Shown: in pieces, positions 5,960 through 64,000 of the stretch
Layout of the letters: the number at the start of each line of letters is the position of its first letter
Numbering within the stretch: the first letter of the stretch is position 1
Origin: a virus
Length of the DNA stretch: 64,000 nucleotides
Virus record (IMG/VR): IMGVR_UViG_3300026488_000012
Location: 64,001-128,000 of that record
Strand: one strand, 5' to 3'
Translations under genes and position numbers: made by a program
Notes under the pieces: generated by a model
What the model was told of the DNA's origin: nothing
Seen by the model: the letters and a program-made list of their open reading frames with translations, nothing else
The model's database searches: none

Positions 5960-6781
5960 TTAATTCTTAAATCTATACCCAGGAGTTCCTTATGCCAAGA
6001 GGATTTAAAGACAGGTTTTTTTTTTCTTTTCTGAAGTCTTTTCTTTATCTTCAGTCTGTCTTTTCTAATCCTCTCACTAGATAGGAGAACTAAATCAAGT
6101 ATCTGAAATATTTTTTTCTGTTCTGAAATCCCTCTAGTAGAGTTAAAGACTAATAACCTGTAACTTGGTTACCATTCATGTACGTTAGCTCTGAGTCTTT
6201 TAAACCCCTTTTAGCTCTTATCTATCTCTCTTATTTTAAAACTTTTTTTATCAATATTTTTTTATCGTTAGAGTATATATAATATATATTATACTAACGT
6301 ATAATATATTACATATTATTAAAAAAAAAAGGAGAGGGGTACAGTCCCCCTCCTACGGAGCCTTCGCTCACGTAGGTTTGTCCTACTCTGTCTCTTCTTC
6401 TACCCAACTAAATACTTCTATATGTCTGTTCCTCCGTTCGCTCGTCTCCTACCTTCCCCATCAATAGAATTATGTACAAGACTACGTCTTGTAAACACTT
6501 TTTATTAAATTAGATTTAATAAAAGCTTAATTAGTTGGATATTGCTTAGAATATGGTATAGAAATAATGAAAAAACTGTATAAGAAATGAAGAAAACTAA
6601 TTAAGCTATTCCTATGTAAGATTAGATACATATCCTATATACTCTCTTATAAGTCTTTTAGAAGTAAAAGAGAATATAACATGTCTTATATAGAAAAAGA
6701 AAATAAGAAAAAGATATAAGTATATACAAGATAGTATGTTAAAAGATAAAAAGAAATAGATAAGATAAAAGGAGTAGAAAC
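5960..6781. other. Large non-coding region with hairpins and strand asymmetry (candidate origin / packaging / ncRNA locus)
   Basis: No ORF >=60 aa; T-rich left part, purine-rich right part; inverted repeats at 6332-6353, 6475-6493, 6500-6524 and 6524-6536/6595-6607; TATATTAC at 6305-6312. Confidence 0.45.
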
Positions 6782-10234: not shown

Positions 10235-10635
10235 ATGAAAAATGAAGAAAGATATGCAATCATTGATAGAGAAGAAAATAAAGTACTTTCAGAAGCGAAC
10301 AAGGTTCAGTATTTAAGCGGTGGTTATCACACATACAAAGAGCTGTATGACTATCGTATGGTATATAGTACTATTGCTTTTAACGCTTTATATTAACAAG
10401 GTTACAATGTGGTGAAGAGTTGGAGGCATGATGATGGCGAACTGTGTTTTGGCGGGAGCGGTTCGTGGTGTACTTGTTACACCCGGAAATCGGACAGATT
10501 TCGAACCATTACCCTACTGAGACATGGGAATTACTTAAGGTCCCTGAGGTTGAGACTGCTCCTAAATGGGACGGACATACGTCTCAAGAAGCATACGAGA
10601 GGTTACTAAAATTAATAGAGCCACAGGGGAAATAA
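10235..10635 (+). pseudogene. Disrupted WDGH-motif phage protein
   Basis: GYHTYKELYDYR ... in-frame TAA 10394-10396 ... VVKSWRHDDGELCFGG, then a -1 frame change near 10456 to ERFVVY...GQISNHY...APKWDGHTSQEAYERL; the pieces join into one recalled phage family. Confidence 0.75.
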
Positions 10636-49380: not shown

Positions 49381-49486
49381 GGTAATATTTTTAATTTTAA
49401 CTATATATATTGTTATCTTACTAAAATGCAATAAAACTACAAGATTAGGAGGTAAATATGAGTAATGAATTTTACAAAATTAAGGA
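49381..49486 (+). repeat. Promoter-RBS-start cassette, copy 1 (106 bp identical to 57946..58051)
   Basis: Base-by-base match from ggtaatattttt to atgagtaatgaattttacaaaattaagga; contains TATCTTAC 49414-49421 and AGGAGG. Confidence 0.95.
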
Positions 49487-55373: not shown

Positions 55374-55613
55374 ATGAATAGAAGATATAAAATACTTCTA
55401 ATGGCGTTAATAGTTATCCTAAGTGTATTATTAGTGATGTATGAAGACACAGAATATAAAAAAGTTAAAAAAGGGGAGTATGAGTTACAGTGTCTAATAA
55501 GAGATAAAGGATGGGTCACCATAGACCCGTCTAAAGTTGACGGACACGATCCAGAATCAGACTGTTGGTCTTTTACTAACGGATGGGCTTGTAACTGTGA
55601 AGTTACAAAATGA
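55374..55613 (+). CDS. Small membrane-anchored Cys-rich protein
   Basis: 79 aa; N-terminal TM helix, four Cys, WSFTNGWACNC. Confidence 0.75.
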   Translation: MNRRYKILLMALIVILSVLLVMYEDTEYKKVKKGEYELQCLIRDKGWVTIDPSKVDGHDPESDCWSFTNGWACNCEVTK

Positions 55614-55679
55614 CCCCCCTATCTTTTTTCTTTTTATTATATACTGAGATTCAATATTTACCTCCTAATTTTATAGTTT

Positions 55680-55709
55680 ATAGACTATAGGGATATCCCT
55701 ATAGTCTAT
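55680..55709. terminator. 30-bp perfect palindrome
   Basis: atagactatagggatatccctatagtctat; shares the core tagggatatcccta with 5930..5959. Confidence 0.65.
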
Positions 55710-55800
55710 GTTTTTTTAATAGAATTTTGTGTTGTAAAATATTTCAATTACATTATATTAATTAGTAAAAAAGGACAAACTAACTAAAAGGAGAAGCAAT

Positions 55801-57945: not shown

Positions 57946-58051
57946 GGTAATATTTTTAATTTTAACTATATATATTGTTATCTTACTAAAATGCAATAAA
58001 ACTACAAGATTAGGAGGTAAATATGAGTAATGAATTTTACAAAATTAAGGA
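57946..58051 (+). repeat. Promoter-RBS-start cassette, copy 2
   Basis: 106 bp identical to 49381..49486. Confidence 0.95.
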
Positions 58052-60263
58052 TATTATAAATAGATACGCAAAGTATTTTAAAGATAACAACTCTGAGTTA
58101 AGACTGAGATATGAGTTATTTTCAATTCACGCGCTTAACCCGTTTGTTATATATAACTCTTCTCCAAGAGGATTGATGATGGCGTCGCATGTATCACAGA
58201 TACTTGTTATAGATAATCCTGAGAAAGACATAATACAGACGCCTACTATGAATGATCTTAGTAGATATGTTATATCTAAGAAGTTTCTACATGATGCAGA
58301 GATAATTGATGTAATAAGTAGATATAGTAATCCATCCATAGGTAAAGAGGTAGAGTATGATATCATCTATAGAAGACTAGATGACGGTAAGGTTGACGTA
58401 ATGAAAATACCATTATTTAATAAATTTCACACCTATTTTGGATTCCTATACAAATTCCTATTAAATCATAGAGAGTTATACCCGGGAACAATAGTTAAAA
58501 AAGATACATACGTAGCAGTACCGCCTACTGTTATAGATGTTGATGACGAGGGCAATTTTGACTATGGGTTTGGTTTAAATGCTAACGTAGCAATGATAAC
58601 TATACCGGAGACTGCAGAAGATGGTATAGTGATATCCGAATCATTCGCTAAGAAACTTAAATTTAAGACTATAGAGAAAAGAGTTTTATTCGTAGAACCT
58701 GATGAGGTATTACTTAATCTTTATGGAAATGATGAACATTATAAGCCTTTCCCTGAGATAGGAGAGGAAATAAACCCAGACGGTGTTTTAATGGCAAAGA
58801 GAAAGATAGATGATGAGATAATAATAGGACTATTGTCTAAGGATGAGTTAAGAAGAGTTAATCCTATGTTCGACGAGGCTGTATATTGTAAAGGAAAAGT
58901 TATAGATATTAAAGTCTATAAAAATTATAAGAACAAGATGATACCTATGGAACCAGACGAGTTTATTAACAAATATGTACAGGGTATGAGTGATTACCAT
59001 AGAAGAATAGTTGATATATACAACGTTCTTAAAAGATCAGACCCTAACTTAGAAATGACTCCACTGTTTATAAAATATGTATCGAACAGTATAGGTTATT
59101 TAGAATCAGAAGAGTATAGAAGAAAGAAAGTATATAGAAAGGAGGAGATAGAACTTTACAGAATAGAAATAGAAGTAGTTAGGGAAATAATACCTACTAA
59201 AGGATTTAAGTTGTCAGACTTCCACGGGGGTAAATCTGTGATAGTGGATGTATGGAAAGACGAAGATATGCCAGTAGATGAATTTGGAAATAGAGCTGAT
59301 ATCATAGCTGACCCGTCTGCTACCGTATCCAGACTTAACATAGGTAGGATGTACGAGAGGTACATAAAGGCTGCGTCCAGAGAAGCTAAGAGACAGCTTA
59401 TAAATAAAATAAGAGAGTTACTTAATCTAACTGAAGTATCTTCTCAAGATGTCGATATATTATCAGACGAACAAGTAGTTAATTTATTTAAAGAATATGT
59501 AATAGAATTTGTAAATATGTTCGATACTGAACAAAAAGCTGCTTACAACCAAGTATTACAGGGTAATGATATTGTCTCTATGAGAGAGATAATTAAAGAG
59601 ATAGTAGATGAGGAGTTCTATATCTATCTAACTCTGGATAATCCGAAAAGAGCTTATGAGATAGTGGTAGATATAGAGTTGTCTAAATTTAAACCTCCAT
59701 ATGGTAAGGTTAAGTTCAATTATTATGGTACTCCTGTGGAAACTAAAAATCCGGTAATGATAGCACCGATGTATTACATACTTCTATCTAAAATAGCAGA
59801 TGACTATCTCGTAACATCTTCTGCTAAGTTAAATCATTTCGGTACTCCTATTACTGTATCATCAGTGGATAAACACAGGTTACCGCATAGGAATTCTCCT
59901 ACAAGAGTATTAGGAGAGACTGAAACTAGACTATATGCGTCGTATTGTGGTAGAGAGTTTCTAGCCGAGTTAAGAAATAGAAATTCGTCTATAGAACAAC
60001 ACGCTACAGTCTATAGAAATATATTAAACGCAGATGAACCTACAGATATAGATGATGTTATACCGAGAGACGTTTATCCGTATAAGAACGATAGACCTCT
60101 AACTATGTTAGAAGCATTATTTCATTCAGTAGGACTGGATTTGAAATATACGGAAGATATAGATTTACTTCACGAGCCACAGCAATTAAAGACTAATGAA
60201 AATCTCGGTGATGATATAGAAATATACGAGGAAGATAAATCATCTTCAGATAGAGAGGGTTAA
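58023..60263 (+). CDS. Non-virion RNA polymerase beta subunit, C-terminal half (phiKZ gp71-73-like), uninterrupted
   Basis: 746 aa; NSSPRGLMMASHVSQ, TAEDGIVIS, GFKLSDFHGGKSVI, ADIIADP, SRLNIG, RVLGETE. Confidence 0.92.
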   Translation: MSNEFYKIKDIINRYAKYFKDNNSELRLRYELFSIHALNPFVIYNSSPRGLMMASHVSQILVIDNPEKDIIQTPTMNDLSRYVISKKFLHDAEIIDVISRYSNPSIGKEVEYDIIYRRLDDGKVDVMKIPLFNKFHTYFGFLYKFLLNHRELYPGTIVKKDTYVAVPPTVIDVDDEGNFDYGFGLNANVAMITIPETAEDGIVISESFAKKLKFKTIEKRVLFVEPDEVLLNLYGNDEHYKPFPEIGEEINPDGVLMAKRKIDDEIIIGLLSKDELRRVNPMFDEAVYCKGKVIDIKVYKNYKNKMIPMEPDEFINKYVQGMSDYHRRIVDIYNVLKRSDPNLEMTPLFIKYVSNSIGYLESEEYRRKKVYRKEEIELYRIEIEVVREIIPTKGFKLSDFHGGKSVIVDVWKDEDMPVDEFGNRADIIADPSATVSRLNIGRMYERYIKAASREAKRQLINKIRELLNLTEVSSQDVDILSDEQVVNLFKEYVIEFVNMFDTEQKAAYNQVLQGNDIVSMREIIKEIVDEEFYIYLTLDNPKRAYEIVVDIELSKFKPPYGKVKFNYYGTPVETKNPVMIAPMYYILLSKIADDYLVTSSAKLNHFGTPITVSSVDKHRLPHRNSPTRVLGETETRLYASYCGREFLAELRNRNSSIEQHATVYRNILNADEPTDIDDVIPRDVYPYKNDRPLTMLEALFHSVGLDLKYTEDIDLLHEPQQLKTNENLGDDIEIYEEDKSSSDREG

Positions 60264-60297
60264 ATCCCTCTCTTGTTATTTCAAATTTTTTCATTTA

Positions 60298-60320
60298 TGT
60301 ATTACTAAACTGTAACAAAA
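60298..60320 (+). promoter_or_regulatory. Early-type promoter motif driving the structured RNA
   Basis: TGTATTAC-TAAACTGTAACAAAA. Confidence 0.65.
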
Positions 60321-60325
60321 CAAAA

Positions 60326-60446
60326 AACCTCTCTACCAAGTACTGCTCCTCTGGTGTGAAGGAGAAGGTCGAGACTAACCCCGGTGGTATAAGGGGAGTC
60401 AGAAGACCTTCTCGACGAAGAGGAGACGTGGAACGGTAGAGAGGTT
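60326..60446 (+). ncRNA. 121-nt rod-like structured RNA / 5' leader of 60461 gene
   Basis: Nested stems: 60326-60337/60435-60446 (12 bp), 60346-60352/60419-60425, 60362-60370/60405-60413, 60373-60376/60397-60400, 60379-60382/60393-60396; visibly GC-rich. Confidence 0.7.
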
Positions 60447-60460
60447 AAAAGGAGTAGATA

Positions 60461-60967
60461 ATGAAAAAAATTAAAGTGGAGTACGATTATAAAGAAATTT
60501 CTTCCCCTGATATTGACGTTATAAAGGAGATAAGAATTGGCGAGAAAGTAGTCTCGCCAATAGCAGTAAAAGGAGTAGAATCCATTAGTCCCAACAGATT
60601 ATTTAGCAATGTAACTAGTGCAAGAGCAATAGTTCTTGCTTATCTTTTTGAGGATGAGATAAATAATTTGTTGCCTTACCCTATGATGATTTTCGATAAT
60701 AGAGGAACAAATGTGGTCGCTACGGAAAGAGAGGAAGATGAATTTCTCTCTTATGATTATGTAGATATGACAGGGGTTAATTGTGGAAGAAGTCAACCGA
60801 CTTATAAGATATTTGAGTTAACCGGGGACCTAATGACCGATGTTTATCACATCATTAACCCTCCGGTGAGGATAGATTATATCTATCCTAAGTTTAGAGC
60901 GGATATTCTTTATTTAGGGAATCAGGCGTTCGCTCTACTTGATGTAGAATTTATAAAACCATATTAA
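60461..60967 (+). CDS. Hypothetical protein
   Basis: 168 aa, AGGAG at 60450-60454; 18-bp palindrome 60969-60986 follows the stop. Confidence 0.8.
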   Translation: MKKIKVEYDYKEISSPDIDVIKEIRIGEKVVSPIAVKGVESISPNRLFSNVTSARAIVLAYLFEDEINNLLPYPMMIFDNRGTNVVATEREEDEFLSYDYVDMTGVNCGRSQPTYKIFELTGDLMTDVYHIINPPVRIDYIYPKFRADILYLGNQAFALLDVEFIKPY

Positions 60968-61102
60968 TGGGAGTTTATAAACTCCCTTTAATTTCTTCTT
61001 TTTTTTTTATTTTAAACATATATATATATATGTATGTATTTCGAACTGATTTCGTGTATATACTATTAAAACGCAATAAAACAAAAAAAAAAGGAGTTAA
61101 AA

Positions 61103-62107: not shown

Positions 62108-62131
62108 TCTTTCTTACTCGTCATCTTTTTT

Positions 62132-62206
62132 TTTTTAATTTTAACTATATATATTGTTATCTTACTAAAATGCAATAAAACTACAAGATTAGGAGGTAAA
62201 TATGAG
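62132..62206 (+). repeat. Promoter-RBS-start cassette, copy 3 (75 bp identical)
   Basis: tttttaattttaactatatatattgttatcttactaaaatgcaataaaactacaagattaggaggtaaatatgag matches 49388..49462 and 57953..58027. Confidence 0.95.
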
Positions 62207-64000
62207 AATAGGCGTTAGAACACTTTATAGATTACCATTAAAAGACATAGTTGAGTTAAGAACTAATTTAACATTAGTATTCGAAGACGGTATAGAGATA
62301 CAAGCTACGTATAAAGAGGTTATAATATTTAGAGCATTAACAGATTTTCTTACCAAATGGGAAGTACCCATTACGTCAGATATGTGGTTAAGTAACTTCT
62401 ATACGAAAGGTTACTTCAGTAAGGATACTTACTTAGAAATGTATTCTCTTATGTATCAGAGAATCGTTAAACTAATTCTTGAACCGCAAGGAAGATATGG
62501 AGAACATTCCGAGGTATTAAAAGACATATTCAAATCTGTTAATATTTTCGTAAATGAGATTGTATCTAAGATACAGGATTATAATATAGGTATAGAGATT
62601 ATAGATATTTTACCTATAGCGTTAGACGAGGAACAGCTGTTATCTATTATGGAAGTAGAGAAAAATCCTACACAAGAATCTATCGAACACACGTATCAAG
62701 TGTTAGATAAAGTTATACATAAACCTGAGAATAGTGGAAAAGTTATGAGACTCGTTTATGATTCAGGTATGGTTAATCTCAATCAGCTAAGACAGCTATT
62801 CGGTAGTAGGGGATTCTTAACAGAGATAAATTCACAGATATTTAAGAAACCTATGATAAATAGCTTTACATTAGGTTTTAGGGATATGTATGAAGCTATT
62901 ATAGAGTCAAGAGCGGGTGCGAAAGCTCTTAACTTATCTACAAAAGCTATTCAGAAATCTGAGAAGACAGCAAGAGAATTTCAGTTAGCTACTATGCCTG
63001 TCGAAGAAATAGTTTACGGTGACTGCGGTAACAGAGACTATATGGAGATAACTGTAAGACCTAAAGAAATAGATGAAGATGGTAATGTAGTACACCAAGG
63101 AGACCTTAAAAACCTGTTAGGTTCTAAGTTTTTAAACGATAAAGGAGAATGGGAAACAATTACTCCTGAACATAAATATTTAGAAGGACAGACTATTAAG
63201 TTAAGGTCAGTATTACACTGTAAATTAAGAAACAAGAAGCAAATATGTACTGCGTGTTATGGAGACCTCGCTTATGGTATGTTTTTACATCAAAATGTGG
63301 GACATATAAATACTACAAACATAACAAGGGATATTTCACAGTCACTACTATCTACTAAACACTTATTAAAGTCAGCATCATCCGCTCCACTTAATCCACA
63401 TCCATCTGTATTTGAGTTCTTTAACCTTAAGGATGAGAAGCTATTTATAAAACCTGAGTATATAGCTAAAAAGAACAAAAACAAAATTTATATACTTGTA
63501 CCACAATCACAGGCTAGAGGGTTAAGAGGAATAAATGATATCAATATCCTTAACGTCAATATTAACAAGATATCAAGAATAACTAACATCGCAATAGTGA
63601 TAGAAGATCCAGAAGGTAATAAAGAAATACATCCGGTGTCTATACTATCGGATAGAAGATATGGATTTTTCACATTCGATTTTATCAGATATATAAGAAA
63701 GAACGGTTATTTTGTAATGGCAGAGTTTCCTGATTTTTATGCTATCGATATCTCAAACATCGATAGGAAGCTACCTATTATAAAATATGAGAGAGCAGAG
63801 TTTGACTTTAATATCTTAAGCGATGAGTTTAGTAAGCTTATAGCGGATAAGAAATACGTTATAGTAGGAGGTAAACGTAAATCTGAATATACTCCTGAAG
63901 TATTAGTTCAGAAACTATTTGACTTACTTAACAAGAAGCTATCTATAAATATTAAAAAGATAGAAGCTATGGTTTACGGATTTACTGCTTATAACTTAGA
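62202..64000 (+). CDS. Non-virion RNA polymerase beta' subunit, C-terminal half (phiKZ gp74-like); truncated by the right edge
   Basis: Not in ORF track; hand translation MRIGVRTLYRLP..., QLFGSRGFLTEINS, ESRAGAKAL, DCGNRDY, Zn site LRSVLHC...ICTACYG, SQSLLSTKHL; open to 64000. Confidence 0.92.
   Translation, partial: MRIGVRTLYRLPLKDIVELRTNLTLVFEDGIEIQATYKEVIIFRALTDFLTKWEVPITSDMWLSNFYTKGYFSKDTYLEMYSLMYQRIVKLILEPQGRYGEHSEVLKDIFKSVNIFVNEIVSKIQDYNIGIEIIDILPIALDEEQLLSIMEVEKNPTQESIEHTYQVLDKVIHKPENSGKVMRLVYDSGMVNLNQLRQLFGSRGFLTEINSQIFKKPMINSFTLGFRDMYEAIIESRAGAKALNLSTKAIQKSEKTAREFQLATMPVEEIVYGDCGNRDYMEITVRPKEIDEDGNVVHQGDLKNLLGSKFLNDKGEWETITPEHKYLEGQTIKLRSVLHCKLRNKKQICTACYGDLAYGMFLHQNVGHINTTNITRDISQSLLSTKHLLKSASSAPLNPHPSVFEFFNLKDEKLFIKPEYIAKKNKNKIYILVPQSQARGLRGINDINILNVNINKISRITNIAIVIEDPEGNKEIHPVSILSDRRYGFFTFDFIRYIRKNGYFVMAEFPDFYAIDISNIDRKLPIIKYERAEFDFNILSDEFSKLIADKKYVIVGGKRKSEYTPEVLVQKLFDLLNKKLSINIKKIEAMVYGFTAYNL

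Follow-up and report, generated by a model that had tools for sequence, protein, structure and literature searches.

For jumbo phages equipped with multisubunit RNA polymerases (RNAPs) of their own, what is known of gene regulation concerns almost only promoters. In the phiKZ-related group, the virion RNAP (vRNAP) uses conserved AT-rich promoter motifs of extended length, and the transcription start site (TSS) of phiKZ and phiR1-37 is found ~6 nt past the early motif (PMC5312081). When we searched the literature for a covarying leader common to several jumbo-phage early genes, we found only the uncharacterised motifs of the Bacillus jumbo phage AR9, which has two multisubunit RNAPs and whose 5' UTRs are unusually long and carry recurring motifs with no assigned function (PMC5312081). 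These motifs have not been described as covarying structures, and AR9-like phages share only ~30% RNAP-beta identity with the phage studied here.

Several better understood systems resemble in part this RNA, a 121-nt leader that we call the rod and that is unusual in being common to five unrelated, presumably early genes of one jumbo phage. Protein-binding leader operators, such as those of T4 gene 32, gene 43 and RegA, the ribosomal-protein leaders and the archaeal L7Ae K-turn, are likewise structured, lie upstream of an exposed ribosome-binding site, and carry conserved non-Watson-Crick loops of the kinds usual in protein platforms. The rod differs from them as a single putative operator of 120 nt standing on five unrelated genes, and it shows no kinship to them in sequence or in Rfam. 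T-box Stem I and the P2 arm of the lysine riboswitch are long helical arms that combine a loop-E/S-turn with a K-turn and, like the rod, carry both an AGUA/GAA-type loop and, in series with it, an asymmetric one rich in GA, but compared with T-box Stem I the rod has the reversed motif order and neither a specifier or T-box sequence nor an antiterminator or multi-helix junction. The RNase III sites of phage T7 (R0.3-R18.5) are several related irregular hairpins in intergenic positions near ribosome-binding sites; the rod, by contrast, is twice as long, follows directly after a promoter instead of lying between cistrons, and has loops conserved across phages. The put elements of HK022 (putL and putR) and the nut elements of lambda (nutL and nutR) are promoter-proximal RNA elements on early phage transcripts, present in several copies per genome, yet the architecture of the rod is unrelated to theirs, and its units are monocistronic, each with its own promoter. 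The PeSL (promoter-early stem-loop) cassettes of T4-type phages and the ERIC and MITE repeats share with the rod the character of repeated regulatory modules before accessory genes with signs of recombination, whereas the rod hairpin lies downstream of the promoter within the transcript, is complex, covaries and keeps a fixed orientation.

The window, by which we mean the whole analysed stretch of 64,000 nt, comprises bases 64001-128000 of an IMG/VR virus record of 179,975 bp with 30.5% GC; positions below refer to the window unless the contig (C1) or another locus is named. The source record is a jumbo phage. The genes on both sides of the locus (58023-60263 and 62202 onwards) encode pieces of a multisubunit RNAP (PF00562; phrog_3295, phrog_3015), the upstream one being RNAP beta-like (phrog_3295, RNA polymerase beta subunit, 7e-161). 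Their best isolate matches are phiKZ-like phages, with only ~30% identity in RNAP beta; relatives nearer than these (60-63% and 44-47% identity in RNAP beta) are metagenomic only, and wherever their source is named it is a hydrothermal vent. A blastn search of the rod locus against 50,697 phage records gave no match. An intrinsic-terminator-like hairpin on the plus strand (60252-60273; 8-bp stem and T-rich tail) ends the RNAP beta-like gene and marks a separate transcription unit starting after it. This unit holds the rod and a gene for a 168-aa protein on the plus strand (60461-60967, ATG at 60461), an ORFan for which no homologue was found among 5.8 billion proteins; another terminator-like hairpin (60969-60986) follows the gene.

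The rod occupies 60326-60446 on the plus strand and scores 141.5 bits with our covariance model R1. Both the minimum-free-energy (MFE) and the centroid structure of RNAfold give a single dominant fold of -60.7 kcal/mol, compared with -36.8 +/- 3.6 kcal/mol for dinucleotide shuffles (z -6.6), none of 200 of which folded as well, and with a weaker fold of -55.8 kcal/mol for the opposite strand; at 75 C the energy is still -22 kcal/mol. The five stems of 12, 7, 9, 4 and 4 bp reported in the initial annotation were reproduced in both structures. P1 (60326-60337/60435-60446, 12 bp) closes the rod and is separated from P3 (60346-60352/60419-60425, 7 bp) by an internal loop that resembles a loop E, or bulged-G, motif (AAGUACUG, 60338-60345, opposite ACGUGGAAC, 60426-60434). 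Between P3 and P5 (60362-60370/60405-60413, 9 bp, with an AGAA bulge next to it on the 3' side) lies a purine-rich asymmetric, K-turn-like loop, GGUGUGAAG (60353-60361) opposite GACGA (60414-60418). The apical hairpin consists of 4 + 4 bp and the 10-nt loop GGUGGUAUAA at 60383-60392. The Shine-Dalgarno (SD) sequence AAGGAG (60449-60454) begins 2-3 nt 3' of P1 and is predicted to be single-stranded. At ~52% GC, compared with 30.5% for the genome, the rod is a GC-rich RNA island within an AT-rich genome; in AT-rich hyperthermophiles, this signature has served to locate genes for non-coding RNAs. Two other islands of the window (6321-6418 and 10394-10532) have at least 50% GC and no open reading frame (ORF) of at least 80 aa over them, the former folding moderately on the plus strand (mono-shuffle z -3.2), the latter not.

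Upstream of the rod, at 60302-60321 on the plus strand, is the promoter-like motif TTACTAAACTGTAACAAAAC, which matches the consensus TTACTAAAnTGyAAyAAAAC found at ~30 sites on the plus strand of the genome. The promoter of its own that had been claimed for this RNA corresponds to the phage's recurrent motif and is not sigma-70-like. By analogy with the phiKZ-related phages, the motif probably belongs to the early (virion-RNAP) promoter class. The distance from the end of the motif to the ATG is usually 16-22 nt but 139-145 nt where a rod is present, corresponding to ~120 nt of additional sequence, and every copy of the rod is placed between the motif and the SD that belongs to its gene. The majority of genes behind this motif have no rod. 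Because the rod starts ~5-6 nt past the end of the motif and the TSS of phiKZ and phiR1-37 lies at a like distance, the rod would begin at, or within a few nucleotides of, the 5' end of the mRNA, with P1 at the extreme 5' end.

The same motif also precedes the RNAP subunit genes as an identical 106-bp cassette. This promoter and ribosome-binding-site cassette occurs three times before RNAP subunit-like genes (49381-49486, 57946-58051 and 62125-62230), two copies agreeing at all 106 bp, the first ~29 coding bases among them, and the third being 81% identical. Like the rod, it points to intragenomic copying of regulatory cassettes. A 26-nt stretch at 55654-55679 forms inverted repeats (I24 and I25) with the ribosome-binding-site cassette that the RNAP genes share, to which it is 92% complementary; the region around it (55470-55740) folds strongly, is partly GC-rich, and has no ORF of at least 80 aa over it.

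BLAST of the genome against itself first showed additional copies, and a search with R1, built from three genome copies, identified five in total, all on the plus strand and all co-oriented with the gene they precede. The window copy (C1:124326-124446) precedes the gene for the 168-aa ORFan, and the others those for proteins of 138 aa (C1:1-117 joined to 179902-179973), 255 aa (C1:3114-3232), 282 aa (C1:62621-62742) and 728 aa (C1:142670-142789). The five genes are mutually unrelated and share no known function; searches of their products against Pfam and PHROG assigned a family only to the 282-aa protein, which belongs to MYG1/UPF0160 (1.6e-25). This DHH-type protein (PF03690) is encoded at L005:1639-2487 (G000:C1:62761-63609), and its orthologues in the relatives G001 and G006, 31% identical, have a short promoter-SD spacing and no rod, so either the present lineage acquired the rod or theirs lost it. 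The window copy and the contig-end copy are exactly alike over all bases present, promoter included, which together amount to ~185 bp, whereas C1:3114 and C1:142670 are 96% and 87% alike in their middle and apical parts and 68% in P1. The exact pair and the mosaic copies support recombination between copies.

One copy also bears on the completeness of the record, since both ends of the contig sit inside it (C1:1-127 and C1:179902-179973) with an overlap of ~64 nt. The final two bases of this overlap mismatch, which probably hid it from the IMG/VR end-repeat test. Two relatives with direct terminal repeats measure 185-186 kb, from which the record, at ~180 kb, probably represents a complete or nearly complete genome, and the CheckV estimate of 66% completeness looks too low.

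Homologues of the rod in other phages are found directly upstream of orthologues of the 728-aa protein (41-47% identity) and occur once in each of those phages. L116/L117, obtained from two independent samples, carry one upstream of the orthologue P0123 (40.8 bits, E 1.5e-8) with R1, which had been built without them; this leader keeps GAGUACUG, GGUGUGAAG, GACAAAG, GUGGAAA and the apical GUUGUUA, and has an additional hairpin. The ENA contig k141_60306 starts (L116:1-34) with what we take to be a Nextera transposase adapter (GTCTCGTGGGCTCGGAGATGTGTATAAGAGACAG); if so, the first 34 bases of L116 are not phage DNA and the promoter of its leader has been cut off. Upstream of the orthologue P0129, in L124, another homologue was identified (41.5 bits, E 7e-9) with a second model, R2, built without it; this leader keeps P1, UAGUACUG/GUGGAAA and the GUUGUU loop, and has no K-turn-like loop. 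The leader of the orthologue in L070, a 60% relative, has a 12-bp P1 and UAGUAC/GUGGAAC around a different interior, and, scoring just 12 bits, it is counted as a possible member only; this marginal match was the only one at the loci of the 60%-identity relatives. The orthologues L118, L120 and L121 have long leaders with other folds. Neither R1 nor R2 matched in seven related IMG/VR jumbo-phage records (41-47% RNAP-beta identity). Pattern scans gave 39, 0, 0 and 18 stretches in viral contigs, 17 in metagenome contigs and 16 in genome contigs; the 39 viral, 17 metagenome and 16 genome stretches failed the covariance model and the 18 viral ones a helix check. With no match in the seven related records and only chance pattern matches elsewhere, the rod family is narrow.

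Besides the window copy, the family members score 41-134 bits. We propose to define the family by a P1 of at least 9 bp around AGUACUG...GUGGAA, a long covarying arm, an apical GUUGU loop and placement between promoter and SD; the window copy belongs to it, although its apical loop deviates. As a new family within a known kind of structured mRNA leader, it may be named the rod leader of vent jumbo phages. The rod appears to have had its original place in the leader of the conserved 728-aa early gene of vent-associated jumbo phages (G000:C1:142809-144995; L075:2810-4996), and in the simplest history the rod and its promoter were copied from there onto four other early genes in the present genome. 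The 728-aa protein itself is one of a large family that is still uncharacterised, with 2,529 representatives at E<=1e-3; its N-terminus is very basic, and its C-terminal domain is conserved and rich in Cys and His (DCCQH...C.KAGWR). Searches of Pfam and PDB gave no match for the family, and the Atlas gave only weak leads (PcfJ, score 0.83; a GNAT-like fold, TM ~0.5). In two related phages, a GC-rich element (50-60%) with a terminal T-run precedes the leader of the 728-aa orthologue (L121:2600-2780 and L124:2700-2790), which may be a further structured RNA with its own terminator; Rfam gave no match to it.

The helices of the rod are maintained by compensatory changes. Among the five genome copies, 96% of the cells pair and double changes occur in 15 of 38 pairs, and among six sequences from three phages 93% of the cells pair with compensatory double changes in 24 of 38, these counts coming from alignments fitted to the model and from sequences that are mostly paralogues. 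For the six sequences, none of 500 shuffles reached as high a value, and slid partners were only ~50% paired. P1 alone occurs as CUCUCUACC/GGUAGAGAG, CUCCCUGUC/GACAGGGAG, CUAUCUGUC/GACAGAUAG and CUUUUUGA/UCAAGAAG. G.U cells outnumber A.C cells by 15 to 3, or by 9 to 3 without one invariant U.G, and no reading frame is conserved across the rod. The covariation, the G.U excess, the lack of a conserved frame, and the fixed orientation and placement together indicate an RNA of the sense strand and not a DNA palindrome. We conclude that the rod is a genuine structured RNA on which selection acts in the sense orientation.

While the helices covary, the loops are kept constant, which is the pattern to be expected of a recognition site and not of a plain hairpin. 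In the loop next to P1, AGUACUG is invariant (6 of 6 family members) and the opposite strand reads GUGGAA(A/C) in five of the six, c62623 having AAGGAAC; AGUAC opposite GGAA(A/C) is common to all six and fits the loop-E consensus, AGUA/GAA between Watson-Crick pairs. By this consensus match, the loop may be a loop E (bulged-G, sarcin-ricin-like) motif, the three-dimensional motifs of the rod being assigned by sequence alone. The apical loop reads GUUGU(U/C) in five of six members, the two foreign homologues among them, and GGUGGU in the window copy. The K-turn-like loop is kept in the five genome copies and in L116 (GACAAAG) but, being missing from L124, is not universal in the family. In a K-turn, a C-helix is followed by a 3-nt bulge and tandem sheared G.A/A.G pairs; C1:3114 and C1:142670 would fit this with GGA-GAAG opposite GACGA and a 3-nt bulge (GGA), and the window copy has a 5-nt bulge (GGUGU). 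The non-canonical stem has strands of unequal length.

The locus was compared with known RNA families. An Rfam scan at gathering thresholds gave zero matches in the window and likewise at six related loci; at E<=10 on 60100-60700, nothing spanned the rod and nothing came near the threshold of its family. ARAGORN found no tRNA or tmRNA in the window or in the whole genome, and an SRP RNA has neither an Rfam match nor its architecture here. Together with the covariation, these results uphold the view of the initial annotation that an undescribed structured RNA occupies this 5' leader. Its suggestion of a 6S-like promoter mimic found no support: 6S RNA is a rod of ~180 nt with a large central bubble resembling an open promoter, whereas the rod described here has 121 nt, no central bubble, internal loops of at most 8-9 nt per strand, and no match to the 6S family. 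The location between two RNAP subunit genes, to which attention had been drawn, is incidental, since the four other copies precede unrelated genes elsewhere. Autoregulation by the 168-aa product alone is unlikely, because this protein is an ORFan and the rod is common to five genes and to other phages. Three further candidates were considered and rejected: a T-box leader, as there is no Rfam T-box match and no terminator between the rod and the SD; a classical attenuator, for the same lack of a terminator; and a pairing of the apical GUUGUUA with UAACAA of the promoter region, which shows no covariation among the copies.

The rod most likely controls the five early messages. We favor the interpretation that it is a protein-recognised 5'-leader operator combined with a stability element, to which we assign a probability of roughly 45%. 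Loop E and K-turn motifs are common docking sites for proteins or RNA, and the presence of a loop-E-like and a K-turn-like loop favors recognition by a protein. According to this model, the rod would form the 5' leader of an early phage mRNA, starting a few nucleotides from the presumed TSS, and a protein would recognise it through the invariant loop-E-like motif (AGUACUG/GUGGAA) and the apical GUUGUU loop. Bound beside the ribosome-binding site, this protein could set the translation and/or the decay of the five mRNAs jointly, making them a post-transcriptional regulon, while the 5'-terminal helix would shield the mRNA 5' end. Since the free RNA leaves the SD open, any repression would depend on a bound and so far hypothetical factor. 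The phage genome encodes neither an L7Ae-like protein (PF01248) nor an RNase III (PF14622).

Without a dedicated regulator, the rod could serve as a passive 5'-terminal stabiliser and/or as a site for endonuclease processing. P1 at the mRNA 5' end and a fold stable at 75 C would suit such a role, the multiple intergenic copies are reminiscent of the R-sites of phage T7, the 5' stem-loops known to block decay that depends on the 5' end offer another parallel, and stems of 12, 7 and 9 bp would suit an RNase III site (an irregular helix of ~20 bp). A plain hairpin would suffice for passive protection, though, and would not explain why the asymmetric loops are invariant across phages whose orthologues are 43-47% identical, or why most genes with the same promoter lack a rod; the missing phage RNase III speaks against processing, and we consider this explanation rather unlikely. 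The same multiplicity, with a strong recurrent promoter before each compact and very stable RNA, could instead provide a high early dose, from five promoters, of a trans-acting small RNA or protein decoy cut from the 5' UTR, whose invariant loops could mimic the site of a cellular RNA. Between the rod and the SD there is neither a terminator nor an obvious processing signal, and in other phages the rod occurs once, tied to one orthologous gene as is typical of a cis element, making a trans-acting product improbable. Promoter proximity and copy number would also suit put- or nut-like processive antitermination, in which the phage RNAP would read through the terminators flanking small units, and terminator-like hairpins do follow served genes, as at 60969-60986. 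The rod has no likeness to put, with its two short hairpins, or to boxA/boxB, and the downstream genes each have their own promoter motif, so that read-through seems unnecessary; we regard antitermination as quite improbable.

Sensing of a small molecule or ion has in its favor a structured leader with conserved internal loops, a loop E plus a K-turn being part of the architecture of lysine riboswitch and T-box RNAs. An unbranched rod with no expression platform (no terminator, and an SD that is never sequestered), placed before functionally unrelated genes and matching no Rfam family, nevertheless makes a poor riboswitch, and this reading has little to recommend it. As for a selfish palindromic repeat of the MITE or ERIC type, or a recombination cassette without RNA function, the rod is indeed an imperfect palindrome of ~120 bp in several copies, including the exact ~185-bp pair and the mosaics. 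Compensatory changes in the helices, the excess of G.U over A.C cells, the same orientation and placement in 5 of 5 copies, flanks without target-site duplications, and conservation before an orthologous gene in other phages render it very improbable. Least credible of all, in our estimate, is the anti-SD switch or RNA thermometer advanced in the initial annotation, in which CUCCU (60346-60350) would pair either with an internal AGGAG (60421-60425) or with the AGGAG of the SD (60450-60454). These elements, and the ATG at 60461, were located correctly and are complementary as described, but the SD is 0.99 unpaired at 37, 60 and 75 C, and the alternative pairing crosses and breaks P1, its enforcement costing +21 kcal/mol at 37 C and +12.4 kcal/mol at 75 C. 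P3 shows the covariation of an internal helix, and L124 does not keep the CUCCU tract, which also disfavors a thermometer.

A broader reading, which we advance tentatively and hold to be rather doubtful, is that the rod is a portable tag giving chosen virion-RNAP early transcripts a special fate and movable as a promoter-leader cassette. The tag might be a docking site for a phage or host factor that grants privileged ribosome loading or, equally, protection from takeover nucleases, in a lineage of phages known from hydrothermal-vent metagenomes. If true, phiKZ-like jumbo phages would have here their first post-transcriptional regulon whose members are marked by a common structured leader. The rod shows a regulatory RNA spreading inside a phage genome as a promoter-leader cassette. 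With five natural variants in one genome, natural minus controls that have the same promoter and no rod, and two recognisable candidate docking motifs in an RNA of only 120 nt, the rod family offers a testable handle on post-transcriptional control in jumbo phages with their own multisubunit RNAPs.
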